DNA from: a virus
Lineage: Duplodnaviria > Heunggongvirae > Uroviricota > Caudoviricetes
DNA length: 64,000 nucleotides
Virus record (IMG/VR): IMGVR_UViG_3300043788_000176
Span: 56,566 to 120,565 of that record
Strand: one strand, 5' to 3'
The notes below the pieces were generated by a model. That model was not told the origin of the DNA. It saw nothing but the letters and a program-made list of their open reading frames with translations, and did not search any database. Shown in pieces: positions 6,991-63,838 of the stretch. The translations under genes and the position numbers were made by a program. The first letter of the stretch is position 1. Each line of letters starts with the position of its first letter.

Positions 6991-8664
6991 TTAGTTGAAT
7001 CGGCCCTCGATCCGAGCCAATCGCTTGTTGACCTCGACGATTCCCTCAACCAAGCGATTGACCTTGGTGTTGACCGAAGGAACCGCGTTGTCGGGGACAT
7101 CGTCGCGACCGATTGCGGTCTGGATGAACCCCGCACTGCTAGCAATATGGCGCGTCCGCAGGTTAGTGTCGCGGACCCCGGTCTCAACTGCCGCCGGGTT
7201 TGCCAGTCCGTCCGCTCCGTTACCGTTGTGCAGGATGGCTTGGAAGCTCTCGACGAACTTTTCGGCGTCGGATTTGTCACCGAGGTTGCGGTTAAGTAAA
7301 CCCAACTGGAATCCCATGCTCTCTGCCGAGATAAACAGGTCGTGGTCGCTCAATTGGTCGGCGTCACGCCCGACCATCGACAGAGTCGCCCGCGATACGC
7401 ACTCCCGGATCGAAGATGGGATTTGCCCGGCAAGCGCTTCGCCAGCTTTGGGCAACGGCAAATCCTGCGGGATCAGGTCGCGAGCATAGAACCGCAATAG
7501 GCGCTCGACGGTTGGGGCGTCGGGGGCTTTGAGCGAGATGATCGCATCGAGACGGCCGGGGCGCAGCATCGCTTGGTGGATTTCGTCAACGTGATTAGTT
7601 GACAGCAGCACCATGACCTCGTCGTCCTTGCCGACAACGCCGGAGATCGTGTTGATCAGATCGTTGGCGTCTTCGTCTCGCTCTTCGGTGATGCGGTCGA
7701 TATCCTCGGCAAACACAACGCACGGCATGTAGCGGCGCGCGAGGTGCAGCGCGGCGGTCAAACCCTGGACCTTGTCGAGCAAAATATAGGTCCACTCGCC
7801 ATGCCGCTGTGCGACGTTGGCTACCATGCGCGCGGTCAAGGACTTGCCGGTGCCAAACCGGCCTTCGAGCAGGACCTTGCGGCCAAGCGGGATTTTACGC
7901 TGGCGGCACGCGTTGGATTTCAGCAATGGCACCAGCAGATTGACCGTGATCTGATCGGTCGTCACGTCATCGAACAAGACCGCCGCCTCGGTGGTGTCCT
8001 CGACATTTAGAAAGTCGGGTCCCTCGGCCAGCATTAGTTGGCCGTTGTCATCGACTTGGATGCTGATCGCCTTGCCGCGATAGATTGATTCCTCGCGGAC
8101 GATGCGGCGGGTTTCCTCGGCGATCCGCAGGATGATCTCGCGATCCTTCTTGGCCACCGTGCCCATGATGACCATACCGGGATGACCCTTGTTGTTGAAA
8201 CTGAACCCGGTGGTGATCTGCTTTTCAACGCCGGGCAACTTGAAGTTCCCCATCGCGACTTGGACGAACTCGCCTGGCCGATACCCAGTTTTGATCGTCA
8301 GCATCTGCGGGTCGGAATACCAAGTGCTGACCGGCGACGACAGCCCGTAAAGGTTGCGGCACGCCTTGGTGAACGCCACCGCAGCGTCGTGCGGGAAAGC
8401 GTCAATCCACTCGAATACCTTGAAATCCTGGTCTTCGTCCTTGATGATGCGGTCGAGGGTTTCGCGCGCGACCGTTAGCGGCATACGCGCCGGATCGGCC
8501 GGCAATTGGATGCGGCGACCGCCCTCAGGCCAGTCCACCGGCACGTCAATCTTGCTCCAATTGGGCTGCTTTTTGCCGGATAGCCGTTCGGCCAATTCCA
8601 GCATGACATCGGCCAGCGCCGCATTTTCCAGCACTGGGGTTTCGGCAACTACTGACTTAGCCAT
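6991..8664 (-). CDS. AAA+ ATPase (classical AAA clade) with a ~270-aa N-terminal domain of unknown function
   Basis: Walker A GRFGTGKS and Walker B VVFAEDID. Second region of homology TNHVDEIHQAMLRPGRLD matches the classical AAA SRH. Confidence 0.7.
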   Translation of the reverse strand: MAKSVVAETPVLENAALADVMLELAERLSGKKQPNWSKIDVPVDWPEGGRRIQLPADPARMPLTVARETLDRIIKDEDQDFKVFEWIDAFPHDAAVAFTKACRNLYGLSSPVSTWYSDPQMLTIKTGYRPGEFVQVAMGNFKLPGVEKQITTGFSFNNKGHPGMVIMGTVAKKDREIILRIAEETRRIVREESIYRGKAISIQVDDNGQLMLAEGPDFLNVEDTTEAAVLFDDVTTDQITVNLLVPLLKSNACRQRKIPLGRKVLLEGRFGTGKSLTARMVANVAQRHGEWTYILLDKVQGLTAALHLARRYMPCVVFAEDIDRITEERDEDANDLINTISGVVGKDDEVMVLLSTNHVDEIHQAMLRPGRLDAIISLKAPDAPTVERLLRFYARDLIPQDLPLPKAGEALAGQIPSSIRECVSRATLSMVGRDADQLSDHDLFISAESMGFQLGLLNRNLGDKSDAEKFVESFQAILHNGNGADGLANPAAVETGVRDTNLRTRHIASSAGFIQTAIGRDDVPDNAVPSVNTKVNRLVEGIVEVNKRLARIEGRFN

Positions 8665-34115: not shown

Positions 34116-34247
34116 CGCGATCACTCCCGTTATCCCTTCGAGCAGACAATACCCGATCGCCCGATCTCGGCGCAATCCCCGCGTTGACCCTCTTGACAGA
34201 CGCCCGAGATAGCGTTAATGTCCCCAACTCATCAGAGAGAGGGACAG

Positions 34248-34886
34248 ATGCGTAGCTTACTTCTGGCTGCCACGGCGGTCATGGCGTTAACTATCACGGC
34301 GGCGCGAGCCGATCAGATCACGGGCGGGGCTGGCGGAGACTGGGCGACGACAGGGTCGGGAGGCGGAGCGCTCAGCATGAGCACAGGCGGTTGGTCGGCA
34401 ACGGCGTTCGATCCAGCCGACGATTTGGGGAATGCGGTTTTTGGCGCCTCATCCCTCACGACCAATGTGCAGTCGGCCGGTGTGTTTTCTGTGAAGACCG
34501 GGGGTGTGCAGTCGTTCTCATTCACCAGCGGCGCGAACACGCTGGATGGCACCCTCCACTTGGCGGACGTTGTTGACAATTCGTTGAATCCCCATGTTGA
34601 CGGGACGCTCGACATCACCGCGGTGACGGGAGATCTTCTGTCCACGTTTACGGTCGGCGGCACGGCGTCGTTCGACGCGATCATGGAAGATGTGACGACG
34701 CGGCTGGATGCCTTGTCGCTCACCAAAAATGAGGAGAATATTTTTACCAGCAGCATTGAGATCGTACCAAACAACGTCCCCGAGCCGGCTTCGGCCTTGC
34801 TGCTCGGCGTCGGGTTGCTCGGTATCGGTTGGATAAGGCGCCGCCGCGCACCCGCCGCGATGCGGGCAGGCGTCGGCGGCGTCTGA
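34248..34886 (+). CDS. PEP-CTERM sorting-domain secreted protein
   Basis: Signal peptide MRSLLLAATAVMALTITAARA. C-terminus VPEPASALLLGVGLLGIGWIRRRR is the canonical PEP-CTERM (VPEP, TM helix, Arg cluster). Confidence 0.55.
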   Translation: MRSLLLAATAVMALTITAARADQITGGAGGDWATTGSGGGALSMSTGGWSATAFDPADDLGNAVFGASSLTTNVQSAGVFSVKTGGVQSFSFTSGANTLDGTLHLADVVDNSLNPHVDGTLDITAVTGDLLSTFTVGGTASFDAIMEDVTTRLDALSLTKNEENIFTSSIEIVPNNVPEPASALLLGVGLLGIGWIRRRRAPAAMRAGVGGV

Positions 34887-38861: not shown

Positions 38862-41800
38862 GTGAAGAGCAAGGAACGGCCATCACAGGGGAAAGGCACT
38901 AGACGCCAATCCCCCGTCCTGCGGCTAGGCGACGAGGCAATACCGCCTGAGTTACGCCATCTCCGCAATCACCCTGCCTTCGAACTCGCCTACCGCTTCC
39001 CAAAGGAAGGACTAAAGCACTTCGAGCGACTGCGGTGCGAGCAGTCGCTGCTGGCGTTTTTTGAGCGGGCGTGGCGCGAATTCGATCCGGCTGCGGTCAA
39101 GATCAATTGGCACCATGAGGCGATCTGTGAACACCTTATGGCTGTAACACGCGGAGAAATTCGCCGTTTAATCATTAACGTGCCACCTAGGGCTTCAAAA
39201 AGCAATTTAGTGAACATTATATGGCCCGCATGGACGTGGGTGCAAAAGCCGCGCGAAGCTTGGCTGTCTGGGCCGCAGATAAAATTCATGTGCATCTCTT
39301 ACGGTCAAAAACTCTCAAGTGAGATCGCGACATTAGCTCGACATCTGGTTTTATCGGAATGGTATCAGGGGAATTGGGGAGAGAAGACCAAGCTATACGA
39401 CGACCAATCGCGCATTGATAATTTTGGTAACATCTCAGGCGGCGTGCGCATTGCCACCTCGATGACTGGGTCCACCCTTGGCCGGGGCGGCGACATAAGA
39501 ATCATCGACGATGCCCAAAATGTTGAAGATGCCAACTCACCGATCGAGACGGATCGCGTGGTCCGCACTTATCGTGAATCGTTGCAAACTCGCGAAACCG
39601 ATCCGCAGACCTCAGCCGAGGTCATCATCATGCAGCGGCTCAATGAAAACGATTTGACTGGCTACATCCTGTCAGAGGCGTCGGATGACGTTGTGCATCT
39701 GGTCTACCCAATGCGGCATGATCCGACGCGTCACTGCACCACGCGGTGGTTCGATGATCCTCGGACGAAGGATCAGGAATTGCTGTGGCCGGCACAATTT
39801 CCAGAAGAGGTTGTCGCCGATCGCGAACGGCGGATGGGACCTTTTGCGGTAGCCGGGCAATATCAACAGGCCCCCGAGCCGCGCGGCGGCGGCATCTTCA
39901 AGCGCGATTGGTTTCAAGCATGGCCCGTCGTTGATGAGTATGGCGAGGTGCCCGCGGGTTCGATCATCAATGGTCGCATCATCTATCCAGCTCTCGAATA
40001 TATCGTGGCCTCGGTTGACACGGCGCATACGGCTAAAGAAGAAAATGATTACTGTGCAATGATCGTTCTGGGCGTCTTCCGTGCCGAAGGCAAGGGAAGG
40101 ATCGAGCGACAGGCTGACGGTCAGTATATTAGGATCGCTGACGATCAGGGTTATCCCAAAGTATTGTTGTTGCATGGATGGATGAAAAGGTTGACAATCC
40201 ATGGACCACCAGAAGAACTGCCAGCAGGCATTGATCTTAAACTATGGAACAGCGCGAGCTATCTCCCAGAGCGACAAAAGACATGGGGACTAGTTGAGTG
40301 GGTTCATCACAGTTGTCGGCGATATAAGGTCGATCACCTGATTATTGAAACTCAGGCAGCAGGGCATGCCTTGGATGCCGAGTTACATCGCCTACACTCC
40401 GACAGCACATGGAGTGTGGAGTTGTCTCCCGCGCGTGGAGATAAAGTGGCCCGTGGCTATAAGGTGCAAGGCATGTTCTCAAGTCATCAGTTCTATGCCC
40501 CGACGTATCAAGATGGTACTTATCCGACCTGGTGCGAACCTATTATTGACCAGTTATGTGTCTTTCCCAAGGGCAGACACGATGACGCTGTCGATGCTTG
40601 TCTCGCTCCAGAAACGCCAATTTTGACTACTAGGGGGTTAGTGCCAATCTGTGACATCGCGGTCGGCGATGAAGTGATGACCCACCGAGGTCGCTGGCGA
40701 TCGGTAACTGCGGTCGGCAACCGCATTGCGAAAGAGCGCCTACGGATCAAAGCCAAAGGCCTTGAGGCGATCGAAGTTACCGCAGAACACCCGTTTTTGA
40801 CGCTGCCTGTGATTTTTTCACAAGCCCGCGCGCTGCCAAAACGCAGAGCCGGTAACCCATCTTGGAAACCAGCAGGATGGCTGCGAGAACGCGCGCGTTA
40901 CACCTTTTTGCGTGAAGGCAAGTTAGTATCATCGCAGAAGCGTAGCGATTACGATTGTCTCGTAATACCGCGACCCATAATGGAAGATAATGATGGCTTC
41001 CTAGACGCGAGCAAGTTTGCCCCGTCCGAATCGTGGGCTGATGATCACCTCATCTATTGCAATCGACTCAGCACAGCGAAGTTGTCGGTTGCTGAGGTCA
41101 GCCAGATTGCAAAATTAAGGAATAGTAGTGCAACGGCTACGGCGGTAGCCCGTGATTTTGACATTAGCATTCCGATTGTTTGCGATATCTGGGCCGGACG
41201 CCGACCCGGACCGGGAGTGCAGACTAGCCCGCGATGGATCGAGTTAACAGAGGAGGCGGGATGGGCCTTTGGTCTTTTTGCCGCCGAGGGTTGCGTGTGT
41301 GGTGGTCAGATCATATGGACCTGCGACGGCGATGCAGTTCGCCGGGTTCAAAAATGGGCATCAACCGCCTTTGACCATTATGTCGGCATATCCGAAGGTG
41401 GCATATGCGATCGTGCAGTGCTGTCTAGTTTGGTGGTGGCACCCCTTTTCCGAACTTTCGGTTATCTCGCACGTAACAAAATTGTCCCTGCGTGGGTATT
41501 TGGGGCCTCGGATTTATTTATTAAGGGGTTTGTTGATGGATTTACTCACGGGGATGGATCATCAGCCACGCGCCGCCCTGGAGATTCGGGGCAGTTTGTG
41601 CTTACATCGTCATCGCCCTCTCTGCTTTGGGGGATGCGAATTCTACTCGCGCGACTGGGCGTCCCGTCATCGCGTGGGACACCGAAGGCTGCGGGGGCGC
41701 GCATAATCGGTGGGCAACTCCGCCAATGCCGAGAATCTTATCGGTTAGATTATAACGTCGGAGGACGAGGACATCTCGCGACAGTGCATGATGCCTACAT

Positions 41801-42041
41801 CGGGCACCACATCGAAAAAATCGAACGAATTAAAGAGGCATGCGAGGTCTTCAATATCGCCGTCAGTGAAGATGAGAGCTATCTAACGGTTGGCGGTGTC
41901 GTGCATAACTGTACCCAGGCTCTAGCCCATCTCCGCGACATCGGCATCTTTGAGCGGCGTGGCGAATACGAGATTGCCGAAGAGCAATCCAGGATTTGGA
42001 TGCCTGGGCAGCAGCGATTCGAATTGCCCTACGATCTCTGA
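38862..42041 (+). CDS. terL: terminase large subunit (T7 gp19-like), interrupted by an in-frame intein
   Basis: Walker A-like IINVPPRASKS. Motifs DIRIIDDAQN and RHDDAVDA|CTQALAHLRD parallel T7 gp19 (ADIIIADD, AHDDRLDALALG). The extein sums to about 622 aa. Confidence 0.75.
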   Translation: MKSKERPSQGKGTRRQSPVLRLGDEAIPPELRHLRNHPAFELAYRFPKEGLKHFERLRCEQSLLAFFERAWREFDPAAVKINWHHEAICEHLMAVTRGEIRRLIINVPPRASKSNLVNIIWPAWTWVQKPREAWLSGPQIKFMCISYGQKLSSEIATLARHLVLSEWYQGNWGEKTKLYDDQSRIDNFGNISGGVRIATSMTGSTLGRGGDIRIIDDAQNVEDANSPIETDRVVRTYRESLQTRETDPQTSAEVIIMQRLNENDLTGYILSEASDDVVHLVYPMRHDPTRHCTTRWFDDPRTKDQELLWPAQFPEEVVADRERRMGPFAVAGQYQQAPEPRGGGIFKRDWFQAWPVVDEYGEVPAGSIINGRIIYPALEYIVASVDTAHTAKEENDYCAMIVLGVFRAEGKGRIERQADGQYIRIADDQGYPKVLLLHGWMKRLTIHGPPEELPAGIDLKLWNSASYLPERQKTWGLVEWVHHSCRRYKVDHLIIETQAAGHALDAELHRLHSDSTWSVELSPARGDKVARGYKVQGMFSSHQFYAPTYQDGTYPTWCEPIIDQLCVFPKGRHDDAVDACLAPETPILTTRGLVPICDIAVGDEVMTHRGRWRSVTAVGNRIAKERLRIKAKGLEAIEVTAEHPFLTLPVIFSQARALPKRRAGNPSWKPAGWLRERARYTFLREGKLVSSQKRSDYDCLVIPRPIMEDNDGFLDASKFAPSESWADDHLIYCNRLSTAKLSVAEVSQIAKLRNSSATATAVARDFDISIPIVCDIWAGRRPGPGVQTSPRWIELTEEAGWAFGLFAAEGCVCGGQIIWTCDGDAVRRVQKWASTAFDHYVGISEGGICDRAVLSSLVVAPLFRTFGYLARNKIVPAWVFGASDLFIKGFVDGFTHGDGSSATRRPGDSGQFVLTSSSPSLLWGMRILLARLGVPSSRGTPKAAGARIIGGQLRQCRESYRLDYNVGGRGHLATVHDAYIGHHIEKIERIKEACEVFNIAVSEDESYLTVGGVVHNCTQALAHLRDIGIFERRGEYEIAEEQSRIWMPGQQRFELPYDL
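40599..41909 (+). mobile_element. intein (437 aa) with LAGLIDADG homing-endonuclease domain inside terL
   Basis: Begins CLAPETPILTTRGLVPICDIAVGDEV (block A, Cys1). Ends YLTVGGVVHN followed by +1 Cys (CTQ). Internal LAGLIDADG-like motifs WAFGLFAAEGC and FIKGFVDGFTHGDGS. In frame with terL. Lower GC than the flanks. Confidence 0.7.
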
Positions 42042-46781: not shown

Positions 46782-46895
46782 AGGGGCTTGCATTTGTCGC
46801 GGCATTGTTTAAATGTTCAACACACAGCCGTCGCGGCCACGGCGGTTGTGGTAGGGGGATAGGCCCCTCCCTTTTTGGCCGACGGGAGACGCAAA

Positions 46896-47185
46896 TGCGA
46901 AACTTATTGCTCGCGGCGACCGCAATCGCCGCGCTCGCTGTCGCTGCCCCAACCTATGCTCTGTCCCCTTGTCTCGCCGGTCTAGGCGCCGGCGCGGTCG
47001 CGGGTCATTACGGGCATCACACCTTTATTGGGGCAATTGGCGGCTGCATGACGGCCAAAGTGCTGGTTTCCGACTGGAAGCGATATAAGGCTGCCCACCC
47101 CAATGCTTCCGTCAGCGAGTTTCTCGATGAAAAGAAACAAGAGATGGAAGGTTTGCTGAACGCCGAGAACGGAGGCAACCAGTGA
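46896..47185 (+). CDS. secreted small protein
   Basis: Signal peptide MRNLLLAATAIAALAVAAPTYA. Confidence 0.35.
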
Positions 47186-47439
47186 AGAAGCTTCTTATGG
47201 CTGCCAGCCTAGCTGGAGTTGTGCTGGCTGGTGCTGCACCGGCCGCCTCAGCTGGCTGCTACGACTGGGGTGCGCGCCACTGGTACTCAAGCGGCTGGTG
47301 GTGGGGTCACGCGTGCATGCATGACGTGTATCACGCTTACGGACCGCCGCGCTCAAATTACTACAGTGGTCGGCCGCCCACGGTGGTGCACGTCTACCAC
47401 GCGCCGAGCGGTTCGGTGGTTGTTCACCACCATTACTAA
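47182..47439 (+). CDS. secreted Trp/His-rich small protein
   Basis: Signal peptide MKKLLMAASLAGVVLAGAAPAASA, then WYSSGWWWGHACMHDVYHAY...VVVHHHY. Confidence 0.35.
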   Translation: MKKLLMAASLAGVVLAGAAPAASAGCYDWGARHWYSSGWWWGHACMHDVYHAYGPPRSNYYSGRPPTVVHVYHAPSGSVVVHHHY

Positions 47440-47562
47440 GCGGCTGGGGCTTGGGAAACCAGGCCCCGTCTTTAACAGGGTTGTCGCCATTGCGACTATA
47501 GTTCTCACCTGTCTTTGGGCCGTCGCGCACTGGCACGCCTTCTACTAGAAGGGAAACTTGTT

Positions 47563-48033
47563 ATGCATCTCACACGCATGGGCTTTAACGCCTTAGTCAT
47601 CGTCTGGCTGGCGCCTCTTGTTATGCTGGACTTTGTCGGCAACACGATTTCAACTGGGTTCTGGTCGGACGTGTTTTTCTACAAGATGCTCGCTGATGGG
47701 CTCTTGGTCGGATACGCATTCTGGGAATGCAGCCATGGTCAGACGACGAGTCTAGCGAATGCTAAGGCGCGTGTGGCCGACAGACACGATGATGTTGTCA
47801 GCTTCGAGAACATCGGCGCGATCGAGTATGTTTACTGCGTCGTGCTCTGTGTTTATGCGATCGCGAACTTTGTCGTTCTGCACGGCATGAACAAAGAGTC
47901 GACGGGTCTGGAGTCAATCGCGACGCTGGCGTGGTCCTTCGTCTCGCTTGCGGTGGCAATCCTCGCGGCGGTGCAGTTCTGGCACTTGAAGAGCGGTAAG
48001 ATTGTCGAGTTGACGCACAAAGTCGTCAACTGA
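47563..48033 (+). CDS. integral membrane protein
   Basis: About 4 hydrophobic helices (FNALVIVWLAPLVML, VYCVVLCVYAIANFVVL, LAWSFVSLAVAILAAV). Confidence 0.35.
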   Translation: MHLTRMGFNALVIVWLAPLVMLDFVGNTISTGFWSDVFFYKMLADGLLVGYAFWECSHGQTTSLANAKARVADRHDDVVSFENIGAIEYVYCVVLCVYAIANFVVLHGMNKESTGLESIATLAWSFVSLAVAILAAVQFWHLKSGKIVELTHKVVN

Positions 48034-48045
48034 GGGGGTTCGGTC

Positions 48046-48333
48046 ATGGGGTGGTTGTCGGGATGGGTCGGTCGCCGACATTGGTCGGCCTACATGATCC
48101 TGATCGGCCTGATAGGGTTCGGAGTTGCAACGCACCCTTCCCTCTTCGGCTCTTTGCTGATTCTGCTTTTGGCAGCGTGGCTGTTCTTTATGCGCGAGGT
48201 GGCGCACGCCGAAGGCGCGGCAGCGGTCAACGACCAACGCCCAGCGATTGACCGCCGCGCGCTGATTGCGGCGGCGGTCATCACTATCGTAACGATCGTT
48301 GCCATGTCAAAGATCAACTGGCTGGCCATTTAA
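48046..48333 (+). CDS. integral membrane protein
   Basis: Helices YMILIGLIGFGVA and LFGSLLILLLAAWLFF, plus a C-terminal helix. Confidence 0.35.
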   Translation: MGWLSGWVGRRHWSAYMILIGLIGFGVATHPSLFGSLLILLLAAWLFFMREVAHAEGAAAVNDQRPAIDRRALIAAAVITIVTIVAMSKINWLAI

Positions 48334-49843: not shown

Positions 49844-49906
49844 CCCAATGGTATTGAGCTAATCGGTGTGCTAGACTGCGGCTCTCTGTCTAAGGGAGCC
49901 GCCAGT

Positions 49907-50944
49907 ATGGCCAACTCGCACGACCACTCTCATCTGCGCCACATGGCGGTGCAGCAGCACGCCGAGCGGATTCATGAAATCCAGCGCGACCACCGCGCGC
50001 ATGGCGGTCGCGGCGACGAAGCCGCTGATAAAATTCTTGTGACGAAAGGCGTGCATGATCATGAGCGCGCACTGCACAAGGGATCGCCGCTCACTCACTT
50101 AAATCTCCGCGATGGCGGTCACGCCGAGGGTCACTTAGGCAGGCATCGGCTTGATCGGGCCAAACGTGCGCGCGGCGGTCGCGCTGACGGGGGACCAGCG
50201 CCGCCACCAGTTCCGTCAGAATACGCGCAGAATTATGCGGATGCTGCTTCTCCAGGGATCGGCGCTCAGCAGGGCAGCGGCGGGGCACCAACGTCTGGAC
50301 AGATGCCGCCGCAGCACCAGAACCGCGGCGGTCGGACACGGCGAGCGGCTGGCGGCAAGGTTGATTCGATCTACCGCGACCGCAATGGTGGTGAGGGGGC
50401 GTCGAACAGCGGCAAGGGACGTGACGCGTCGGGCGAGAAAGATGCCGCTCGTATGCGTGCCGAACAGAAGCGCGATGTTGACCATTACGCTCGCGATCGG
50501 TTTGCCGATGGTGGCCACACAAAGCGTGGCGGCAAGGCCAGCCACGTCAATGTCATTGTCGCGCCTGGGCAAGGTCCGGCGCGCCCGGTGCCGATCCCGG
50601 TTCCTGCGGCTGGGATTGGCGGCGCGCCACCGCCTCGGCCGCCGATGCCCCCAATGGGGGCGGGTGGGCCGCCAATGGGTGGTCCTCCTCCGGGTGGTAT
50701 GCCGGGAGCGGGAATGCCACCGCGCCCAGGCATGCCCATGCCGATGGCACCTGGCGGGATTCGCCGCAATGGGGGGCGTGCTGGGCGAGCCGATGGCGGC
50801 AGTATCGAGAAAGAAGCTGGCGAGCCGCATCTGCCGTTTAGCGCTGACCCGGAGATGCGTGGCGGCGCGCAGGGTGCGCTCGGTCGTCTCGAAAAGACCA
50901 AAAGCGCTCGCAAGATCGGCTCTGCCGCTGTGGCGGGAGACTAA
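49907..50944 (+). CDS. His/Gly/Pro-rich basic low-complexity protein with KRGG-type repeats
   Basis: Repeats KRARGGRADGG, RRAAGGKVD, TKRGGKASH. Poly-Pro/Gly/Met tract PPMPPMGAGGPPMGGPPPGGMPG. Good TAAGGGAG Shine-Dalgarno before ATG 49907. Confidence 0.4.
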   Translation: MANSHDHSHLRHMAVQQHAERIHEIQRDHRAHGGRGDEAADKILVTKGVHDHERALHKGSPLTHLNLRDGGHAEGHLGRHRLDRAKRARGGRADGGPAPPPVPSEYAQNYADAASPGIGAQQGSGGAPTSGQMPPQHQNRGGRTRRAAGGKVDSIYRDRNGGEGASNSGKGRDASGEKDAARMRAEQKRDVDHYARDRFADGGHTKRGGKASHVNVIVAPGQGPARPVPIPVPAAGIGGAPPPRPPMPPMGAGGPPMGGPPPGGMPGAGMPPRPGMPMPMAPGGIRRNGGRAGRADGGSIEKEAGEPHLPFSADPEMRGGAQGALGRLEKTKSARKIGSAAVAGD

Positions 50945-51237: not shown

Positions 51238-51385
51238 TTAGCATCGGTACTGGCGAACCTCAGCCACGAATGCTGGGAAAGCCGCGCTTCGGTAGCGCAT
51301 AGCGGTTCGACGGACTGATCCCAGAACCGCACGGCGGCATCGCCCTCAGAACGAGGCGCGCGATGGGATTCTCCGCGACCAGTAA

Positions 51386-51904
51386 GTGACGGTAGTGTGC
51401 TTCAGGGATGGGATTCTCTGTGCCGACAGACTTGTCACAGCCAGCTATGGCGGTCGCGTCGGTCACCGCAGTAAAATCTTCCGCACTTCGACCGAGGGCA
51501 ATCACTACGGCTTTTCTGGCCCTATCGGCGCCGCCGCGATATTTACGCGTTGGCTTGCCGAAGGGGGTGCCCTGAAAGACGCTCCCGATCTTGATGAGCA
51601 CCAAGCAATCGAAATTCGATCGGGCAATCGGGTTGCGCTGTCCTCCGGCAAGAAACCCGTCTTTATTGAGGTTGAAGCACCGTTTTACGCCATTGGCTCA
51701 GGCTGGCAATTGGCGCTGGGGGCCATGGAAATGGGGGCGACCGCCGAGCAGGCGGTCGAGGTGGCGATACGCCATGACGAGGGCTGCGGGGGTCAGATTG
51801 ATGTGATCCGGTGCTACGAGCAGGCGATGCAGTTTGCCCCGCAGACGGCAGCGGTGACCTTCCCAAATCGCATTGACCCAATCCACCTCGGAGGGCCGAG
51901 GTGA
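51386..51904 (+). CDS. HslV/proteasome beta-like Ntn threonine peptidase
   Basis: GTG start gives (M)TVVCFRDGILCADRLVT with Thr at position 2. Aligns with HslV [21 protein letters not shown]. Conserved Lys (GHRSKIF vs GNVKKV), GFSGPIGAAAIF vs GFAGGTADAF, and AIGSGWQLALGA vs AIGSGGPYAQAA. Confidence 0.6.
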   Translation: MTVVCFRDGILCADRLVTASYGGRVGHRSKIFRTSTEGNHYGFSGPIGAAAIFTRWLAEGGALKDAPDLDEHQAIEIRSGNRVALSSGKKPVFIEVEAPFYAIGSGWQLALGAMEMGATAEQAVEVAIRHDEGCGGQIDVIRCYEQAMQFAPQTAAVTFPNRIDPIHLGGPR

Positions 51905-52104
51905 TCGGCGGTGGCTATAATCCGTGGTTTGTGGACGAGTTGATTCGGCGAATTGACACTGATCGCCGCGACAAAGCCTCCGATCTCGGGAATGGGATTG
52001 CCCCTGACTTCGGCGCCTATCAGTATGCTTGTGGGGTGATCGAGGGATTGCGGCTTGGTGCCGAGCACGCCGAAGATATTAAAAGAGAGCAGGACCGGCA
52101 ATGA
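51901..52104 (+). CDS. hypothetical small protein
   Basis: 67-aa ORF between the HslV-like and GroES-like genes, with overlaps. Confidence 0.25.
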   Translation: MIGGGYNPWFVDELIRRIDTDRRDKASDLGNGIAPDFGAYQYACGVIEGLRLGAEHAEDIKREQDRQ

Positions 52105-52586
52105 ATACCAGTTTTTTAATGCCTGAACGGGCGTTGGTGACGCCGAGCGGCGTGCGTCCCGCAGAGCATCGGGTGACATTCTCCGAGGAAAACGAAGCCA
52201 AGGAGCAAGCCTATCGGCTATTGGGGGACCTCGATGACATCGAGTTGTTCTTCAACGACGTTCTGATTCTCAAATACATTCGCACCCAATTGAGCGAGAA
52301 TCTGACAGCCTCAGCCGAGACGCAGAAAGAAGACAAGTGGCAAAGCAGCATTGGTTTGGTGCTCAAGGTCGGCCCGACAGCTTTTGTTGATGACGAACAC
52401 ACTAAGTTCCACGGCGCCACTGTGGCTCGTGGTGATTGGGTAATGTTCCGCGACAGCGACGGCTGGAACCGCGGCATTCAGGAACTCTACGGGTTTCATC
52501 GGTTTGCGCATTGCCGAGTTCTGCAAGACGCGCACATTCGGGCGCGGGTCAAATACCCCGGGCGATTTATGGCACTGGAATGGTGA
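52101..52586 (+). CDS. GroES/Cpn10-like fold protein (possible capsid-assembly co-chaperonin)
   Basis: NDVLILKYIRT...IGLVLKVGP...VARGDWVMFRDSDG...DAHIRARV follows the GroES pattern hDrVlvk...G.Vl.vG...vkvGD.V.F...dIlAiv. Confidence 0.4.
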   Translation: MNTSFLMPERALVTPSGVRPAEHRVTFSEENEAKEQAYRLLGDLDDIELFFNDVLILKYIRTQLSENLTASAETQKEDKWQSSIGLVLKVGPTAFVDDEHTKFHGATVARGDWVMFRDSDGWNRGIQELYGFHRFAHCRVLQDAHIRARVKYPGRFMALEW

Positions 52587-52594
52587 TCTAGCCC

Positions 52595-53614
52595 ATGTCT
52601 GAAACTCGGGTCACTGACCCCAATACCGATGTCGATCAGAAAAACCGCGAGATCGAGATCGTCGATGAGCCGATTGACGATCAGAGCGGCATCGTCGAGG
52701 AGATGAAGCGGCAACTGGCCGAACTTGAGGAGCGTGATCGGAAGCGCGAAGATGAGATCAAGGCTGAGCGCCAGCGCGCTAGTGATGCCCAGCGCGCCCG
52801 CGAGGCGGCCGAGGCTCGGGCGCGTGATGCCGATGCCCGTGCTCGGGATGGTGCCGACACCGCTGCCCGTTCGGTCGATGACGCTCAGTTCGAGGCGATC
52901 TCAACGTCGCTGACGGCGGCAACCGACCAGATGAACGGTCTGAAAGGGCAGTACAAGACGGCGTTCACCGAGGGCGATGCCGACAAACTGGCCGAGATTC
53001 AGGCTAATATGGCATTGCTTGGATCGAGGATTACAACACTCGAAGCTGGCAAGCGAGCACTGGAGGCGCGCAAGGCAACCCCTGACGCGCAGCGGCGACA
53101 AGAGACTCACTCCGAGCCGAGCGAATCCGAACGCCAGGAAACCTTTATCCGTGGGCAACCTCCGCGCGTCCAAGACTGGCTGCGCGCCAATCGCGAGCGC
53201 TATTTCAATGACGCCGATTTCCAGCAGCAGGTCGCCGCTGCCGCTGGGTACGCACAGCGCATCAAGCGCCTAGACCCCGGCAGTCAGGAATATATTGACT
53301 ATGTTGATTACGAACTTGGTTTGCGTCAGCGGCCAGAGCCGGTTGCGGCGCAAACCAATGAGCGGACCAATCAGCCAGCAGGACGCAATCCCGAGGATCG
53401 CGACAACCGCAATGACCGGCGCATGGTGACCGCTCCAGCAGGGGGGAGTGTCCCGAACACCGCGCAGGCGAGCGGCGGCACCGAGCAGGTCTACCTGACC
53501 CGCGAGGAAAAGGAGCAGGCCCGCCGCGACGGAATCACCGAGGCGGAATGGGCCAAGGCCAAGCTCGAACTGATCCGCGAGGGCCAGTTGGGGCCAAACC
53601 GGAGAAACCGATGA
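52595..53614 (+). CDS. putative scaffolding protein
   Basis: Highly charged coiled-coil protein (ELEERDRKREDEIKAERQRASDAQRAREAAEARARDADARA) positioned upstream of the capsid gene and after the portal. Confidence 0.45.
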   Translation: MSETRVTDPNTDVDQKNREIEIVDEPIDDQSGIVEEMKRQLAELEERDRKREDEIKAERQRASDAQRAREAAEARARDADARARDGADTAARSVDDAQFEAISTSLTAATDQMNGLKGQYKTAFTEGDADKLAEIQANMALLGSRITTLEAGKRALEARKATPDAQRRQETHSEPSESERQETFIRGQPPRVQDWLRANRERYFNDADFQQQVAAAAGYAQRIKRLDPGSQEYIDYVDYELGLRQRPEPVAAQTNERTNQPAGRNPEDRDNRNDRRMVTAPAGGSVPNTAQASGGTEQVYLTREEKEQARRDGITEAEWAKAKLELIREGQLGPNRRNR

Positions 53615-53883
53615 ACTCCGACAGAGTCGAAACCGCAGTGCTATGCGAAGCCGACAAATGCACCCGCACGATTACATTCCATGTGCGGGAGGGGTTCGGT
53701 GATGGTACCGATGGTAATGGGCTCGCCATTCCCGATCCTGAGTGGGAGCGGAAAGCGGCGGCGCGGATTTTCGAACAAGCAATCGACGTAGTCATTGGCA
53801 AACAGCCATCGTCAGGGTTAATCGAAAAGTGGGTTAGGCTGAAAAACTTCCGGCCGTGGTGGAAAGGGCATCAAGATGAATGA
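53611..53883 (+). CDS. hypothetical small protein
   Basis: ATGA overlap with the scaffold stop. MNSDRVETAVLCEADKCTRTITFH. Confidence 0.3.
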   Translation: MNSDRVETAVLCEADKCTRTITFHVREGFGDGTDGNGLAIPDPEWERKAAARIFEQAIDVVIGKQPSSGLIEKWVRLKNFRPWWKGHQDE

Positions 53884-54418
53884 CGCAGGCTACCAATCTG
53901 AGGCGCGGGCTACCGATCGCGCTCTCCGCCCTTCGCCGCGCGACAGCAATCCGCGTCTTGCCAGCACCCCGACCGATGGTCCACGCTTGCAGCGCCGCCG
54001 GCATCAAGTCAACATCATGGAGTCGCCCAAGCCTCCGCCCGGCTTCACCTATGAGTGGAAGGCCGAAAAAATTTACGGGGAGCCGCAGAACGAGCATATC
54101 ATCGACATCCGCGAGAACCATTGGAAGCAGGTGCCGGCCTCGCGCCACCCGGAATACGCCATGGGCAGCGACACCGTAATTCGCCGCAAGGACACTGTAC
54201 TTTATGAGCGCCCGACCTATCTGGTCGATGAGGCCCGCATGGAGCAGATCGAGGATGCGATGAAGCCGGTGCTGCACCAAGAGCAGATCATGTATGGGGG
54301 TGCTCCGGATCAATTGACCCGCGATCACCCTTCGGTGCGGCGCATCTCAAAAATCAATCAGCAATACGCGCCGGGAGCCCCCATATCAGATGACGGCCCC
54401 CTATCATCGGAGCCATGA
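53876..54418 (+). CDS. hypothetical protein
   Basis: 180-aa ORF in the structural operon. Confidence 0.3.
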   Translation: MNDAGYQSEARATDRALRPSPRDSNPRLASTPTDGPRLQRRRHQVNIMESPKPPPGFTYEWKAEKIYGEPQNEHIIDIRENHWKQVPASRHPEYAMGSDTVIRRKDTVLYERPTYLVDEARMEQIEDAMKPVLHQEQIMYGGAPDQLTRDHPSVRRISKINQQYAPGAPISDDGPLSSEP

Positions 54419-55378: not shown

Positions 55379-55999
55379 ATGGCCAATATCTTCGCGCCGA
55401 ACGGGTTTCAGGACTCGGGGCTCCAGATTGGAGCCGCGTGGTCCGCGAACCAGACGCGCTATCAGATCCTCTATTCGAACACCCACACCATTTTCCAGGG
55501 TGACCCAGTCACCCTGCTGTCGTCGGGCTACATCGACACTCTGACTCCGGGGTCGGTCAGTTCGACGGTAATGCCGGTCGGCATCTTCAATGGCTGCTAC
55601 TACATCTCGGCCTCCCAAGGCCGTCTGGTGTGGAGCGCTTGGTATCCAGGTGGCGACCAGTTGACCAACGGGGTTGTCTACGCCTCGATCGTTGACGACC
55701 CCAATGTCACATTTGTCGTCCAGACCGGGTGGAGCGGCGGATCGCCAGTTCCCGCTACCCAGGCCATGGTCGGGATGAATGCGACCTACGCCTACGGCAC
55801 TGGCAACCAGCTAAACGGCCAGTCGGGCGCTTATCTCGATCTCAATACGACCCCGGCGACCACCGCTGCCTTTCCGTTTCGCATCCTGTCGCTGGTCAGT
55901 GACCCGCCAGGCTCAAACGGGTCCGATACGACAACTGCCTACAACAAAGTTCTGGTGATGTGGAACAACGAGTTCTACCGCCAGCTGACGGGAGTGTAA
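55379..55999 (+). CDS. putative capsid-associated (minor/decoration) protein
   Basis: 206-aa Gly/Ser/Thr-rich, beta-rich protein immediately upstream of the capsid gene. Confidence 0.3.
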   Translation: MANIFAPNGFQDSGLQIGAAWSANQTRYQILYSNTHTIFQGDPVTLLSSGYIDTLTPGSVSSTVMPVGIFNGCYYISASQGRLVWSAWYPGGDQLTNGVVYASIVDDPNVTFVVQTGWSGGSPVPATQAMVGMNATYAYGTGNQLNGQSGAYLDLNTTPATTAAFPFRILSLVSDPPGSNGSDTTTAYNKVLVMWNNEFYRQLTGV

Positions 56000-56002
56000 C
56001 CG

Positions 56003-56917
56003 ATGCCAGTCGCACTCTCATCGATCCACGACATGCTGCTGCCGGGGCTGCGCGCGGTCACCGGCAAATACCAGCAAATCCCCCGCCAATACGACAAGAT
56101 ATTCCAATACATCAAGTCGGAGCAGGCGGTCGAGCGCACGATTGAAAACCGTTACCTGCCCTTGGCGCGACTGAAGAATGAAGGCGCCACCACGGTTTTC
56201 GACAACCGCGCCGGTCAGCGTTTCACGTGGAACCAATCGCATCTGGAAATCGCGCTCGGCTATGCGATCACCCGGCCGGCGATCGACGACAACCTCTACA
56301 AGACCCAGTTCAATCCGTCGAACCTCGGTCTGCAAGAGAGCTTCAACCAGACCAAGGAAATCTACGCCGCCTCGGTCTTCAATCTCGGCTTCGTCTACCA
56401 GCAGGCCGTTGGTGGTGACGGTCAGCCGCTGTTCTCGACGGTTCACCCGATCGACGGCGGTTCCTACGCCAATGCCTTCACGACCGCGGCCGATCTGTCC
56501 GAGACGACACTGCTGTCGGCAATGATCTCGATCCGCCGTCAGTTTGTCGACCAAGCGGCGTTGAAGCTCTATGCGCGCGCCAAGATGCTGCTGATCCCAC
56601 CGGAGTTGGAACCAGTGGCAATCCGGCTATTGGAGACCCAACTGCGGCCCGGCACTGGCGACAACGATGTCAACGCCATCCGCTCAACCACTGGCGGTCT
56701 AAAGGAAGGGTATTTCGTCAACGACTACCTCACCTCGGCCTATTCGTGGTTCCTGCTCACTAACGTTCCGGGATTGGCGTATATGGAACGTATCCCCTTT
56801 GAGATGTCGATGGAAGTGGAGTTCAGTACCGATAATTTACTAGTGAAAGGCTACGAAAGGTACTCGCTCAGCTATTACAACCCTCGGTCGTGCTACGGCA
56901 CTAACCCAACGAGTTGA
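56003..56917 (+). CDS. putative major capsid protein
   Basis: 304-aa protein following the scaffold with a 3-nt gap to the upstream gene. A homing endonuclease sits downstream. Assigned by position and size. Confidence 0.45.
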   Translation: MPVALSSIHDMLLPGLRAVTGKYQQIPRQYDKIFQYIKSEQAVERTIENRYLPLARLKNEGATTVFDNRAGQRFTWNQSHLEIALGYAITRPAIDDNLYKTQFNPSNLGLQESFNQTKEIYAASVFNLGFVYQQAVGGDGQPLFSTVHPIDGGSYANAFTTAADLSETTLLSAMISIRRQFVDQAALKLYARAKMLLIPPELEPVAIRLLETQLRPGTGDNDVNAIRSTTGGLKEGYFVNDYLTSAYSWFLLTNVPGLAYMERIPFEMSMEVEFSTDNLLVKGYERYSLSYYNPRSCYGTNPTS

Positions 56918-58985: not shown

Positions 58986-59384
58986 ATGGCCGGAAGAGGA
59001 CATCACAGACGCAAGGGCGGCGAAGTCGACATGCCAGAGGAGCATGGCGGCAAGCCAATGAGCTACACGGCGGACAACAACGTCGAGAAAGAGGCTGAGG
59101 GCGAAGAGCGCAGCAAGGGCGGTCGTGCCAAGCGCGCTCGCGGCGGCGCTGCCAAGCATCACGTCGAGCACCATCAGGCCGAGCATGTCGAGCACCACCA
59201 CTACAAGCGGGGTGGCGCAATGAAAGAGGCCGAGATGGAAGGCGGCAAGACCAAGCATCGCCGGATGGACCGCCCTGGTCGCAAGCGCGGGGGCGGTATT
59301 GGTGCTGATGCGACGCCACTGTCAACGGCGGCCCGCACCAAGCAAGAGGGCCACATGGCCGATAACGACGAACTCGCGTCTTAG
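58986..59384 (+). CDS. basic His-rich protein with KRGG/RARGG repeats
   Basis: KRARGGAAKHHVEHHQAEHVEHHHYKRGGAMKE...RKRGGGIGAD, the same repeat type as in 49907..50944. Confidence 0.4.
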   Translation: MAGRGHHRRKGGEVDMPEEHGGKPMSYTADNNVEKEAEGEERSKGGRAKRARGGAAKHHVEHHQAEHVEHHHYKRGGAMKEAEMEGGKTKHRRMDRPGRKRGGGIGADATPLSTAARTKQEGHMADNDELAS

Positions 59385-59402: not shown

Positions 59403-59864
59403 ATGGCCAAGAAGGGCCGTGAGGCGGATTGCGACGATGTGACTCTGCCGTCAATCCCAGATGCCCCTGGGGTCGGCAAGATGCCGCATTACAAGCGCGG
59501 TGGTGCTGCCAATGGCATTGGGCCATTGCCGCACTACAGCCGTGGGGGGAAAACCAAGCATGTTGAAGAAGACGGCGGCTCTAAGGGCCGCCGCCGCCTG
59601 GATCGCGCGCAGCGATGTGAGGGTGGTCGGAAGAGCGGCGGGCGCTTGACCTACGGCGAGCGCGAGAAAATGCCAAGCAGTGAATTCGCGCTGCCCGGCA
59701 AGGGATCTGGCCCCAAGGGTAAGGGCGGAGGCTCTTACCCGATTCCAGACGAAAGTCATGGACGCAATGCGTTGGCCAGAGTCGCGCAACACGGCTCGCC
59801 GGCTGAAAAAGCTGAGGTTCGTCGGAAGGTGCACGCCAAATTCCCAGACATTGGCAAAGAGTGA
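59403..59864 (+). CDS. basic protein with HYKRGG/HYSRGG repeats
   Basis: MPHYKRGGAANGIGPLPHYSRGGKTKH...EGGRKSGG. C-terminus GSYPIPDESHGRNALARVAQHGSPAEKAEVRRKVHAKFP. Confidence 0.4.
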   Translation: MAKKGREADCDDVTLPSIPDAPGVGKMPHYKRGGAANGIGPLPHYSRGGKTKHVEEDGGSKGRRRLDRAQRCEGGRKSGGRLTYGEREKMPSSEFALPGKGSGPKGKGGGSYPIPDESHGRNALARVAQHGSPAEKAEVRRKVHAKFPDIGKE

Positions 59865-60819: not shown

Positions 60820-61026
60820 ATGGTCGGCCTTCTGATCCAGGTTCTGATCCTGTGCCTTGTTCTGGGGCTGATCCTCTATATTTTTGGAGCGGTGCCAATC
60901 TTGGCGCCGTTCCGCTGGCTCGCGCAGATCATCTGCGTCGTCATCGTGGTGATTTTTCTGATCGAGATCCTGCTCGGCATCTCGGGTGGCGGGGTGAGCT
61001 TCCCCGCATTCCACGCGATCAGATGA
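60820..61026 (+). CDS. small two-helix membrane protein (holin-like)
   Basis: MVGLLIQVLILCLVLGLILYIFG and IICVVIVVIFLIEILLGISG. Last plus-strand gene; its end overlaps the convergent purA-like gene by 8 nt. Confidence 0.35.
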   Translation: MVGLLIQVLILCLVLGLILYIFGAVPILAPFRWLAQIICVVIVVIFLIEILLGISGGGVSFPAFHAIR

Positions 61027-62137
61027 CCGTTTCGGTCTGATCGCGGCGCGGGCCAAACCCGCGATAGCCGATCGCTAACCCGACATCGGGCAAGTCGATC
61101 GTAACCTGATCGCAACAGGTCAGAGCGAGATGCGCAGACGATACTGAGCGACCACCAATCGCTAGGTCGTGGCTCACCCTTTCTTTGAGGCCACGCGGAT
61201 CGAGATGACCAAAGCGCAAGGTGCCTTGGTAGGGATGACTTTGGTTGGTTGCATCTATCGGGACCGGGTTCGGGACAAATTCGTTTTTGATCGCCCCAGC
61301 GCCGTGGCGCGTCAAATAGGTGCGCGAGACGTAAACAACCTCAAGTTCGAGGGCGAGTGCGCGGGCGATCGGCACGATATTTTTGAGCCCCGTGTTCGAT
61401 CGGGTCACATGCGGGAACTCGCCGTATTCCTGGTCTAGCAGCAACCCCTGTGCGCCCTCGAAGATGATCTGCGAACTCTGGATGTATTCCAGTCCCGCTG
61501 AGGGTACAGCATGATCGAACTTCCGCACGGCGGCGATGAACGCGTCAATCCAGTTGTTGCCGAGATGCGTGTCGTCTCCAACCAGTGGCGGGACGCCAAG
61601 TTGGTGCAGTCGCGCGGGCATCCAGTTGTCGCGGATGTTGATCAGTTTCTGCTTCAATAATTTGTCAGGAGCTGACAGGTCGTCTTTTAACAGGCGAAAG
61701 GCTGGATAGTTGTTGCGCTCAATGGTCTCGCCAAATCCGACCCCGCAACTACCGTGTCGCGCGGCACCTCGGTGATCTTCGACCATCTGGTTGATCAGCA
61801 TGTCGTAAGGCGTCGTCACGTAGCAGCGCGGGTCAGCCGCGACTGGTGGCGCTAGCCGAACCTCCAGAAACTCGGCGTATTCATGCCAAAACAAGATCGG
61901 ATTGAGCACAAAGTGCTTGGCGAGGTAGGTCTTGGCCCCAGCAAGTGTGCCGGAGCCAAGATGGTGGAACACATGCCGCCGCTCGTCGGGCGTGACGACG
62001 GTGTGCCCAGCTTGGGCTCCGCCATTAAAGCGCACGACAGCGCAATCGGCCGAGACGCCAGATGCGAGGTAATCAACCATCCGCCCTTTGGCCTCGTCGC
62101 CGTAGTTGGCCCCGATAACGGCTGTCGCGCGCCTCAT
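61019..62137 (-). CDS. adenylosuccinate synthetase (PurA) family protein, short phage type (PurZ-like candidate)
   Basis: GANYGDEAKGRMVDYL (PurA P-loop GDEGKGK), NGGAQAGHTVV (GGHNAGHT), IFEGAQGLLLDQEYGEFPHVTRSNT ([24 protein letters not shown]), RFGHLD (RRTGWLD). Only 372 aa versus about 430 for PurA. Guanine-binding TKLD is replaced by TCCD. Confidence 0.6.
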   Translation of the reverse strand: MRRATAVIGANYGDEAKGRMVDYLASGVSADCAVVRFNGGAQAGHTVVTPDERRHVFHHLGSGTLAGAKTYLAKHFVLNPILFWHEYAEFLEVRLAPPVAADPRCYVTTPYDMLINQMVEDHRGAARHGSCGVGFGETIERNNYPAFRLLKDDLSAPDKLLKQKLINIRDNWMPARLHQLGVPPLVGDDTHLGNNWIDAFIAAVRKFDHAVPSAGLEYIQSSQIIFEGAQGLLLDQEYGEFPHVTRSNTGLKNIVPIARALALELEVVYVSRTYLTRHGAGAIKNEFVPNPVPIDATNQSHPYQGTLRFGHLDPRGLKERVSHDLAIGGRSVSSAHLALTCCDQVTIDLPDVGLAIGYRGFGPRRDQTETVI

Positions 62138-63762: not shown

Positions 63763-63838
63763 GCGGCTATAGCTCAACGGCTGAGAGCGTAGCGTTGCCA
63801 ACGCTGAGATGAGGTTTCGACCACCTCTAGCCGCTCCA
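63763..63838 (+). tRNA. tRNA-Gly (anticodon GCC), CCA encoded
   Basis: Manual fold: acceptor GCGGCTA/TAGCCGC, D-stem GCTC/GAGC, anticodon stem TAGCG/CGCTG with loop TTGCCAA, T-arm GAGGT-TTCGACC-ACCTC, discriminator T, 3' CCA. 76 nt. Confidence 0.8.

Follow-up and report, generated by a model that had tools for sequence, protein, structure and literature searches.

The 64,000-nucleotide stretch of DNA considered here, called the window throughout, covers positions 56,566 to 120,565 of the IMG/VR record IMGVR_UViG_3300043788_000176, a tailed phage of the Caudoviricetes. It carries a head-assembly operon that begins with a structured RNA leader, followed by a gene for a 172-residue protein of the PPH family of proteasome homologues, a small gene termed p67, a gene for a GroES-like co-chaperonin and the genes for a putative scaffolding protein and the major capsid protein (Table 1). 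An earlier sequence-only reading had singled out the 172-residue protein as an HslV/proteasome-like N-terminal nucleophile (Ntn) threonine peptidase in the place of a prohead protease. The open reading frames (ORFs) on which that reading relied are all present in the ORF list, and the position of the peptidase gene between the portal gene and the scaffold and capsid genes is confirmed by the family matches of the portal (phrog_1216) and capsid (phrog_371) proteins.

A compact hydrolase of the PPH family

The N-terminus of the 172-residue protein is fixed by the DNA itself. Its GTG start codon lies directly after an in-frame TAA, so no longer N-terminus is possible, the protein can only begin with Met-Thr-Val-Val-Cys-Phe, and threonine is residue 2. 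The copies in two related contigs (L003 and L069) also carry a start codon of the TTG/CTG type directly before the Thr. The Pfam and NCBIfam models for HslV and the proteasome (PF00227, NCBIfam HslV) gave no match to the peptidase at E<=1, nor did a single-sequence phmmer search against the PDB, and therefore profiles and structure were needed to identify it. The protein matches PHROG 1040, “peptidase HslV family”, at E 2.2e-30, and a profile built from 21 homologues retrieved BPH, the beta-proteobacterial proteasome homologue, as its best match in the PDB (5OVU, E 4.7e-9), followed by HslV and the proteasome subunit beta5. An AlphaFold2 (AF2) model with a predicted local distance difference test (pLDDT) score of 88.6, exceeding 90 over most of the core (residues 1-145), was placed by Foldseek with HslV, BPH and 20S beta subunits at a probability of 1.0 and a template modelling (TM) score of approximately 0.6. 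Profiles and predicted structure thus confirm the ORF as a compact proteasome/HslV-type Ntn threonine hydrolase.

The residues Thr2, Asp14, Lys30 and Gly45 are all present and would correspond to Thr1, Asp17, Lys33 and the oxyanion Gly47 of the proteasome. In alignments of the homologues Asp14, Lys30, Gly104 and Gly106 are invariant and Ser105 nearly so, which bears out the proposed conservation of the catalytic set and of the GSG motif. Approximately 155 of 164 family members start with Met or Val and have Thr or Ser next; 119 of these read “MTT”. With E<=1e-10 as the limit, an exhaustive profile search returned 9,493 cluster representatives, almost all of them about 140-150 residues long and aligning from residue 1; family members have a median length of 149 residues. 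The proteins of phage phiCbK and of a Rhizobium phage are 31-38% identical to the window protein. From the fold and the catalytic residues established in this way we infer a peptidase activity.

The predicted structure is compact. A single helix (47-58) lies between the strands 40-44 and 72-78, where HslV and the proteasome have the helices H1 and H2, and the alignment with BPH contains a gap of approximately 30 residues at the place of H2. Downstream of strand 72-78 follow H3 and H4 (107-115, 120-130) and a last strand (138-142), while the C-terminal elements S12/H5 are missing. The alignment with HslV, which had been thought to run along the whole length, holds for residues 1-145 and stops short of the tail 146-172, a lineage-specific segment modelled at low confidence.

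These features are those of the PPH family, described as proteins of approximately 140 residues lacking helix H2 and a propeptide, without an assigned function (Fuchs et al. 2021; PMC8665760). The family occurs in tailed phages and prophages, and in 2021 neither an informative gene context nor an AAA+ partner was reported for it (PMC8665760). Since its size, the missing H2 and the lack of a propeptide match this description, the 172-residue protein was assigned to PPH, and it fits a member of an already described family rather than an undescribed kind of enzyme. The label “peptidase HslV family” is also in use already in PHROGs and RefSeq, with 180 phage records. The sequence-only suggestion that the arrangement might be undescribed therefore does not stand, as the family is published and annotated, and the position of the GroES gene has a precedent in phage HTVC023P (see below).

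The window protein shares with the published PPH proteins a core of about 140-145 residues, the Thr1/Asp/Lys/Gly set, the lack of a propeptide, of H2 and of S12/H5, its origin in a tailed phage and BPH as the nearest solved relative. It differs from them by a 27-residue C-terminal tail, which is added in the sub-lineage of the window, and by its gene, which keeps to one slot of the head operon, in coupling with a GroES-like gene. HslV (ClpQ), the peptidase component of HslUV, likewise adopts the Ntn fold, has a Thr that becomes N-terminal once the initiator Met is removed, and possesses the Lys33/Asp17 equivalents and the GSG motif, yet the core of the window protein is approximately 30 residues shorter, lacks H2 and is only about 20% identical in sequence. 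BPH (5OVS/5OVT/5OVU) resembles PPH in having no known unfoldase partner, whereas it is larger (approximately 200 residues), assembles into heptameric double rings and has helix H2 together with a long acidic pore loop. The Caulobacter jumbo phages C1, C2, J4, RB23, BL47 and CcrSC (approximately 310 kb) each contain four separate places that match PPH; this suggests paralogous sets, possibly forming hetero-oligomers.

For HslV proper, a neighbouring gene for its AAA+ unfoldase HslU would be expected, and a partner of this type was looked for in the window. No hslU gene is adjacent to the PPH gene, and no HslU-like partner was found elsewhere in the 64-kb window. The only AAA protein (557 residues) is encoded on the strand opposite to PPH and 43 kb away, adjoining exonuclease VIII-like and RecT-like genes. 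It contains a classical AAA domain and shows weak IetA/TRIP13 similarity (PADLOC). As an IetA-like member of phrog_10440 in a recombination module, with no HbYX-type C-terminus, it was rejected as an HslU-like partner.

Patchy occurrence of PPH among related phages

Relatives of the phage were gathered via homologues of the peptidase, homologues of the GroES-like protein and the RNA leader, and PPH was tested for by tblastn and by a profile hidden Markov model over six-frame translations, within the fetched stretch of 14-20 kb that surrounds the head genes of each relative. An isolated close relative was not detected by megablast of positions 44-58 kb against the phage collection. Within the clade, PPH occupies its slot in the group of the window itself (L019, L020, L069), in L003/L004 (70% identity), L018 (51%), L280 (53%) and L283 (34%). 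It was not found around the head genes of L007, L009, L011/L012, L281 and L282 and hence is missing, in these head-gene stretches, from half of the sub-lineages. The capsid proteins of the five PPH-less sub-lineages are 86-90% identical to that of the window, and the length of 304 residues is the same in all clade relatives, PPH-positive and PPH-negative alike. PPH was also not found near the head genes of two more distant relatives, MW202675 and HTVC023P (L016, L017), the capsid proteins of which are 66% (303 residues) and 41% (305 residues) identical, respectively.

What takes the place of PPH varies. L007 and L011 contain unrelated genes for proteins of 145 and 146 residues, and in L009 and L282 the slot is empty, such that the leader runs directly into p67. 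Even between close strains the slot is not constant: in L069 the flanking genes are 98-100% identical to those of the window, yet an additional gene of 129 codons lies between PPH and p67. The rest of the module is maintained. The putative scaffold is kept in the clade relatives with 36-77% identity and a length of approximately 340 residues, p206 is 55-86% identical, and p67 was detected by tblastn in every clade relative. Because PPH appears to have been lost repeatedly while its putative substrates remained nearly unchanged, it is most likely not the protease required for this capsid, and the comparison of the relatives indicates that PPH is dispensable for building it. The proposed role as a prohead protease is accordingly not upheld, also since PPH genes elsewhere mostly lie among early or metabolic genes.

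No other candidate for this task emerged from the conserved head genes. Scans with Pfam, PHROG, NCBIfam and profiles detected no classical protease family among the conserved head genes, and profiles of p180 and p206, searched against the PDB for a hidden canonical protease, yielded no significant match and no protease. Conversely, when compared with the prohead protease families S78/U35, S14, S49, U9 and S80, the peptidase matched only PHROG 1040 and proteasome-family structures. With the classical prohead proteases (HK97 gp4/S78, ClpP-like S14, lambda C/S49, T4 gp21/U9) PPH has in common only the position between portal and capsid genes; its fold and catalytic type are different, it is patchy in the lineage, and the capsid protein is devoid of a cleavable delta domain.

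Phages of the P22, T7 and SPP1 types employ a scaffold without proteolysis. By analogy, the lineage of the window looks like such a system, apparently relying on no more than a scaffold and a co-chaperonin for capsid assembly.

Co-chaperonin, RNA leader and further features of the window

The gene order of the clade, parts of which are covered by some of the fetched stretches only in part, is terminase, portal, variable genes, RNA leader, variable slot, p67, GroES-like gene, scaffold, p180, p206 and capsid gene. In the window the portal protein is 60-65% identical to those of the relatives for which the portal was fetched (L007, L011/L012, L280, L281, L282). The scaffolding function of the ORF upstream of p180 is putative and deduced from its position and composition, as the protein gave only weak matches of the coiled-coil type (such as SMC). 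Homologues of the capsid protein carry PF25209.

Table 1. Coordinates of the features discussed, in the window and, where a contig label is given, in related contigs
Feature	Coordinates	Strand	Basis
Exonuclease VIII-like and RecT-like genes	5508..6587 and 4027..5166		
AAA protein	6991..8664	-	PF00004 E 5.5e-14, phrog_10440 E 7e-81
Protein with PEP-CTERM sorting motif	34218..34886	+	E 2e-6
Large terminase, 1059 aa, with intein	38862..42041	+	
Portal protein, 784 aa	44427..46781	+	phrog_1216 E 3e-16
Four small proteins, membrane or signal-peptide type	46805..48333	+	Translations only
SPFH/Band-7 protein, 460 aa	48461..49843	+	PF01145 E 5e-14
p358, low-complexity protein	49868..50944	+	Translation
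Structured RNA leader, start of head-assembly operon	51238..51388	+	Covariance model R1
PPH-type N-terminal-threonine hydrolase, 172 aa; core 1-145, lineage-specific tail 146-172	51386..51904	+	PHROG 1040, profile, AF2
p67, 67 aa, function unassigned	51901..52104	+	Conserved in clade
GroES/Cpn10-fold co-chaperonin-like protein, 161 aa, ~50-aa N-terminal extension	52101..52586	+	AF2 and Foldseek
Putative scaffolding protein, 339 aa, N-terminal half coiled-coil-rich	52595..53614	+	Position and composition
p180, 180 aa, conserved head-module gene	53876..54418	+	Present in all relatives
p206, 206 aa, highly conserved, directly 5' of capsid gene	55379..55999	+	phrog_37556 E 2e-11
Major capsid protein of the HK97-fold family, 304 aa, delta domain absent	56003..56917	+	phrog_371, Mu-like gpT
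HNH and endonuclease VII protein, 351 aa	56914..57969	+	
Two further low-complexity proteins	58986..59384 and 59403..59864	+	Translations
Adenylosuccinate synthetase	61019..62137	-	PF00709 E 1.8e-41
tRNA-Gly(GCC)	63763..63838		
Leader copy	L003 4291..4437		Covariance model
Leader copy	L018 1..125		Covariance model
Leader copy	L069 3920..4069		Covariance model
Leader copy	L280 6036..6191		Covariance model
Leader copy	L007 8273..8424		Covariance model
Leader copy	L009 9661..9803		Covariance model
Leader copy	L011 9287..9430		Covariance model
Leader copy	L281 6106..6265		Covariance model
Leader copy	L282 6665..6826		Covariance model
Band-7 protein, 669 aa	L003 434..2443		
PPH, N-terminus cut by contig end	L283 2..463		
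Slot gene, 129 aa, beside PPH	L069 4582..4971		
Slot, four small unrelated genes	L007 8407..9807		
Slot, one unrelated gene	L011 9367..9807		

The first genes of the operon are tightly interlocked. The TGA stop codon of PPH overlaps the GTG start codon of p67 by 4 nt (GTGA), the stop codon of p67 overlaps the ATG start codon of the GroES-like gene by 4 nt (ATGA), and a perfect Shine-Dalgarno sequence for p67 (GGAGGG) is embedded in the last codons of the PPH gene. Judging from these overlaps, PPH, p67 and the GroES-like gene are predicted to be translationally coupled. The earlier reading had the peptidase followed by the co-chaperonin; p67 lies in between. The Cpn10 fold itself, on the other hand, was correctly recognized. 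The protein stays below the gathering cut-off of PF00166 (E 0.16, 12.5 bits, cut-off 21.1), matches phrog_3188 at E 7e-4 and reaches Cpn10 in a profile search against the PDB at E 0.048. Its AF2 model (pLDDT 84.5) retrieved as the top 29 Foldseek matches GroES/Cpn10 chains or the Cpn10-like chain of a ClpP complex, with a probability of 1.0 and target-normalised TM scores of up to 0.73, and further down the list also T4 gp31. Among 66 homologues, the distant members P0075, P0078, P0079 and P0083 carry PF00166, and the family alignment displays the GroES pattern, including a conserved segment (approximately 60-83) at what would be the position of the mobile loop. The modelled structure, together with these matches, confirms a Cpn10/GroES fold.

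T4 gp31 and the GroES of HTVC023P-type phages are likewise phage-encoded and adopt the Cpn10 fold. Compared with these, the 161-residue window protein has an N-terminal extension of approximately 50 residues and falls below the Pfam threshold for Cpn10. In the Pelagibacter phage HTVC023P and in MW202675, the order small gene, GroES, scaffold-like gene and capsid gene is annotated, the small gene being similar in size to p67 and the GroES gene occupying the same place as in the window. This gene order is also discussed in the paper describing HTVC023P, and a GroES gene ahead of scaffold and capsid genes is therefore already known from HTVC023P-type phages. By analogy, capsid folding in the window phage would depend on the GroES-like protein.

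The approximately 150 nt located 5' of the PPH gene are more conserved than the surrounding coding sequence and can be folded into approximately five helices. A covariance model (R1) built from three copies finds the element in 10 contigs of the clade, where it always heads the p67-GroES-scaffold operon, with PPH following or not, and it is present in every clade member for which the upstream region was fetched. Across the 10 sequences, 16 of 27 base pairs show compensatory changes and 95.5% of the alignment cells are paired; none of 500 shuffles reached these values, and no slid register came close. The motifs UGGCGA(A/G)C...AAGCC...GCGGU are nearly invariant. Rfam yielded no match to the leader better than E 1.6, which is at chance level, and the element was not found in HTVC023P or MW202675. 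Pattern scans produced 61 viral and more than 120 metagenome matches. Upon re-scoring of 61 viral and 80 metagenome loci with the covariance model, only six of the viral contigs were retained, along with a single metagenome contig that was already known; the others were chance matches. The variable slot lies exactly between the leader and p67 and is a hot spot of gene gain and loss: it holds PPH alone, PPH together with the 129-codon gene of L069, four small unrelated genes (L007) or one (L011). The leader is perhaps the more original object of the locus, as a covariation-supported, unclassified RNA which marks the start of the head operon ahead of a variable slot.

Several other features accompany the operon. 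The large terminase contains an intein that combines a Hint domain with a LAGLIDADG homing endonuclease, and the L011/L012 terminase has one too. Four small proteins, apparently of the membrane or signal-peptide type, follow the portal gene, and between the portal and the head operon lies the SPFH/Band-7 protein; in the corresponding region of L003 a different Band-7 protein is encoded, and a DnaJ-domain protein is located just 5' of the leader. The three low-complexity proteins are rich in Gly, Arg and Lys and have “KRGG” and “RxDRxxR...GG” repeats in common. One of them, p358, differs in length and in its repeats even among near-identical strains, at 65-70% identity and with indels. The start of the HNH/endonuclease VII gene overlaps the stop of the capsid gene. 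HNH/AP2/EndoVII genes also follow the capsid gene in L007, L009 and L011, and not in L003, L281 and L283, a patchiness typical of homing endonucleases. The PEP-CTERM protein and the adenylosuccinate synthetase are apparent auxiliary genes, and a glycine tRNA gene is located near the end of the window.

Setting of PPH in other phages and possible roles

In individual phages PPH is found in very diverse surroundings. Its neighbours are metabolic genes in phiCbK, sugar-nucleotide and further auxiliary genes in phAPEC8, and genes for replication in Erwinia phage Pecta. In Rhizobium phage RHph_Y65 it lies with hypothetical genes of the early region, in Proteus phage RS51pmB between the terminase and the lysis genes, and in L006 outside the head module. 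Neighbour clustering and family scans of 77 PPH loci from IMG/VR provided an approximate breakdown. Eight of these loci feature a DNA polymerase A and a PD-(D/E)XK nuclease, nine lie beside a gene for a 388-residue helix-turn-helix protein, and the remaining ones, head modules apart, are located beside NAMPT or integrase genes. This pattern was read as that of a mobile accessory gene.

In our interpretation, to which we assign a probability of roughly two in three, the PPH protein is a dispensable soluble peptidase and not the prohead protease of this phage, whose lineage uses a scaffold, a phage-encoded GroES and a 304-residue capsid protein. The host methionine aminopeptidase would remove the initiator Met, Thr being a permitted second residue, and thereby expose the Thr nucleophile. 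Lys30 and Asp14 would complete a proteasome-type triad, and no propeptide would be needed. As PPH is the first gene after the leader and would be translated with p67 and GroES ahead of scaffold and capsid, the enzyme is expected to be made late, in step with head assembly and stoichiometrically coupled to p67 and the co-chaperonin, as a soluble peptidase that capsid maturation would not need. It may contribute to protein quality control beside the co-chaperonin or act on a host or phage protein late in infection; both the late co-expression and this class of substrates are what we infer.

A number of observations weigh against this interpretation. The absence of PPH pertains only to the fetched head-gene stretches of 14-20 kb. 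The gene resides in exactly the same slot in five sub-lineages or more (the window group, L003, L018, L280 and L283), and the clade copies share the C-terminal tail motif R(I/T)DP(I/F)H(L/P)GGPR; only the last residues of the tail are accounted for by the p67 ribosome-binding site embedded there. The clade copies form one group in the family tree; L283 falls outside in the neighbour-joining tree, yet is closest to the clade copies by identity, and it is basal in the capsid tree. Its PPH reads GAH instead of GSG and nevertheless keeps the lineage-specific tail; the N-terminus of this copy, with the position of the Thr, is cut off by the contig end. Given the same slot, the common tail and the basal L283, PPH is probably ancestral to the clade, was long retained and was lost at least three times. 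A recent random insertion, initially considered, was dropped in view of L280 and L283, which show the same slot and the common tail across the clade.

The survey of other phages adds to these counterpoints. Approximately 20 of the 77 loci are in head modules of three other architectures, namely a DUF4055 portal followed by PPH and MuF; a capsid gene and, further on, PPH and the head-tail adaptor Ad1; and P22-like modules with the order TerL, PPH, portal or portal, PPH, scaffold, coat. The position of PPH differs among these modules. Most of these approximately 20 head modules contain scaffolding proteins, of types known without a prohead protease, and the survey is as a whole compatible with an assembly-linked role. 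Six proteins in the surveyed head-module loci (IMG/VR L085-L158) match phrog_595, “head maturation protease”, with a best E of 1e-25. The candidate genes checked for these matches turned out to be scaffolds (phrog_206) or the adaptor Ad1. The unassigned matches qualify the description of these modules as lacking a prohead protease.

Taken up most directly, these points would make PPH a lineage-specific head-assembly factor that trims or removes the scaffold or a head protein, or clears misassembled capsid protein, together with the phage GroES and host GroEL in modules devoid of a classical prohead protease, and improves the yield without being strictly required. We regard such a role as unlikely. 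It would account for the fixed position and the coupling to p67, GroES and scaffold, for the probably vertical inheritance in the slot with a conserved tail, for the recurrence of PPH in scaffold-dependent P22-like and DUF4055-portal/MuF head modules, and for proteostasis-flavoured neighbours such as the GroES-like protein here, the DnaJ-domain protein in L003 and the SPFH proteins in both. Yet five sub-lineages have lost or replaced the gene while retaining a nearly identical capsid protein, a scaffold of the same length and p206, and the capsid protein of PPH-positive phages has neither a delta domain nor extra length. Moreover, most members of the family are encoded outside head modules, and the share of one-quarter within them is roughly what random placement in genomes of 40-60 kb would produce, according to a rough estimate of ours made with no formal test.

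Alternatively, PPH might target host proteins, be it for takeover, for anti-defence or as cargo packaged and delivered in the manner of MuF, in which case the late operon would provide expression timing only. The spread of the family over very different phages and genome regions, with bacterial copies mostly in prophages (PMC8665760), would agree with this, as would the up to four copies of the Caulobacter jumbo phages and the PPH genes that directly adjoin MuF-like genes. A PADLOC scan of PPH, SPFH, p67, GroES and their neighbours, however, gave no defence-system match for PPH, a co-occurring partner or target is not known (PMC8665760), and the window offers no hint of any specific host substrate; a function of this kind seems quite improbable. 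That PPH is a catalytically different Ntn enzyme, such as an amidohydrolase or a ligase/transpeptidase, or an inactive structural remnant, is very unlikely. The proteasome homologues do include one ligase, connectase (PMC8665760), ring assembly is uncertain in the absence of helix H2, and the L283 copy departs from the GSG motif, but the full Thr/Asp/Lys/Gly set is conserved over thousands of members, and BPH and HslV, the nearest relatives of solved structure, act as peptidases.

A dispensable soluble peptidase thus remains the reading that we prefer, and an annotation of the PPH gene as a prohead protease should be avoided. The locus represents a known family in a newly documented context. 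A more far-reaching view, which we put forward as decidedly doubtful, is that PPH constitutes an assembly-linked proteasome-type quality-control or maturation protease, both in the HTVC023P-related clade (genomes of approximately 100-120 kb), where it and a phage GroES would be translated jointly under a dedicated structured RNA leader, and in P22-like and DUF4055-portal/MuF modules without a classical prohead protease. If true, this would define a fourth mechanistic class of capsid-associated proteases and provide a first function for the PPH family. Phages carry PPH as a very large branch of the proteasome family, and the locus places it in a concrete context that lends itself to tests, with a slot fixed within a late head operon, coupling to GroES, and natural pairs of PPH-positive and PPH-negative sister phages.

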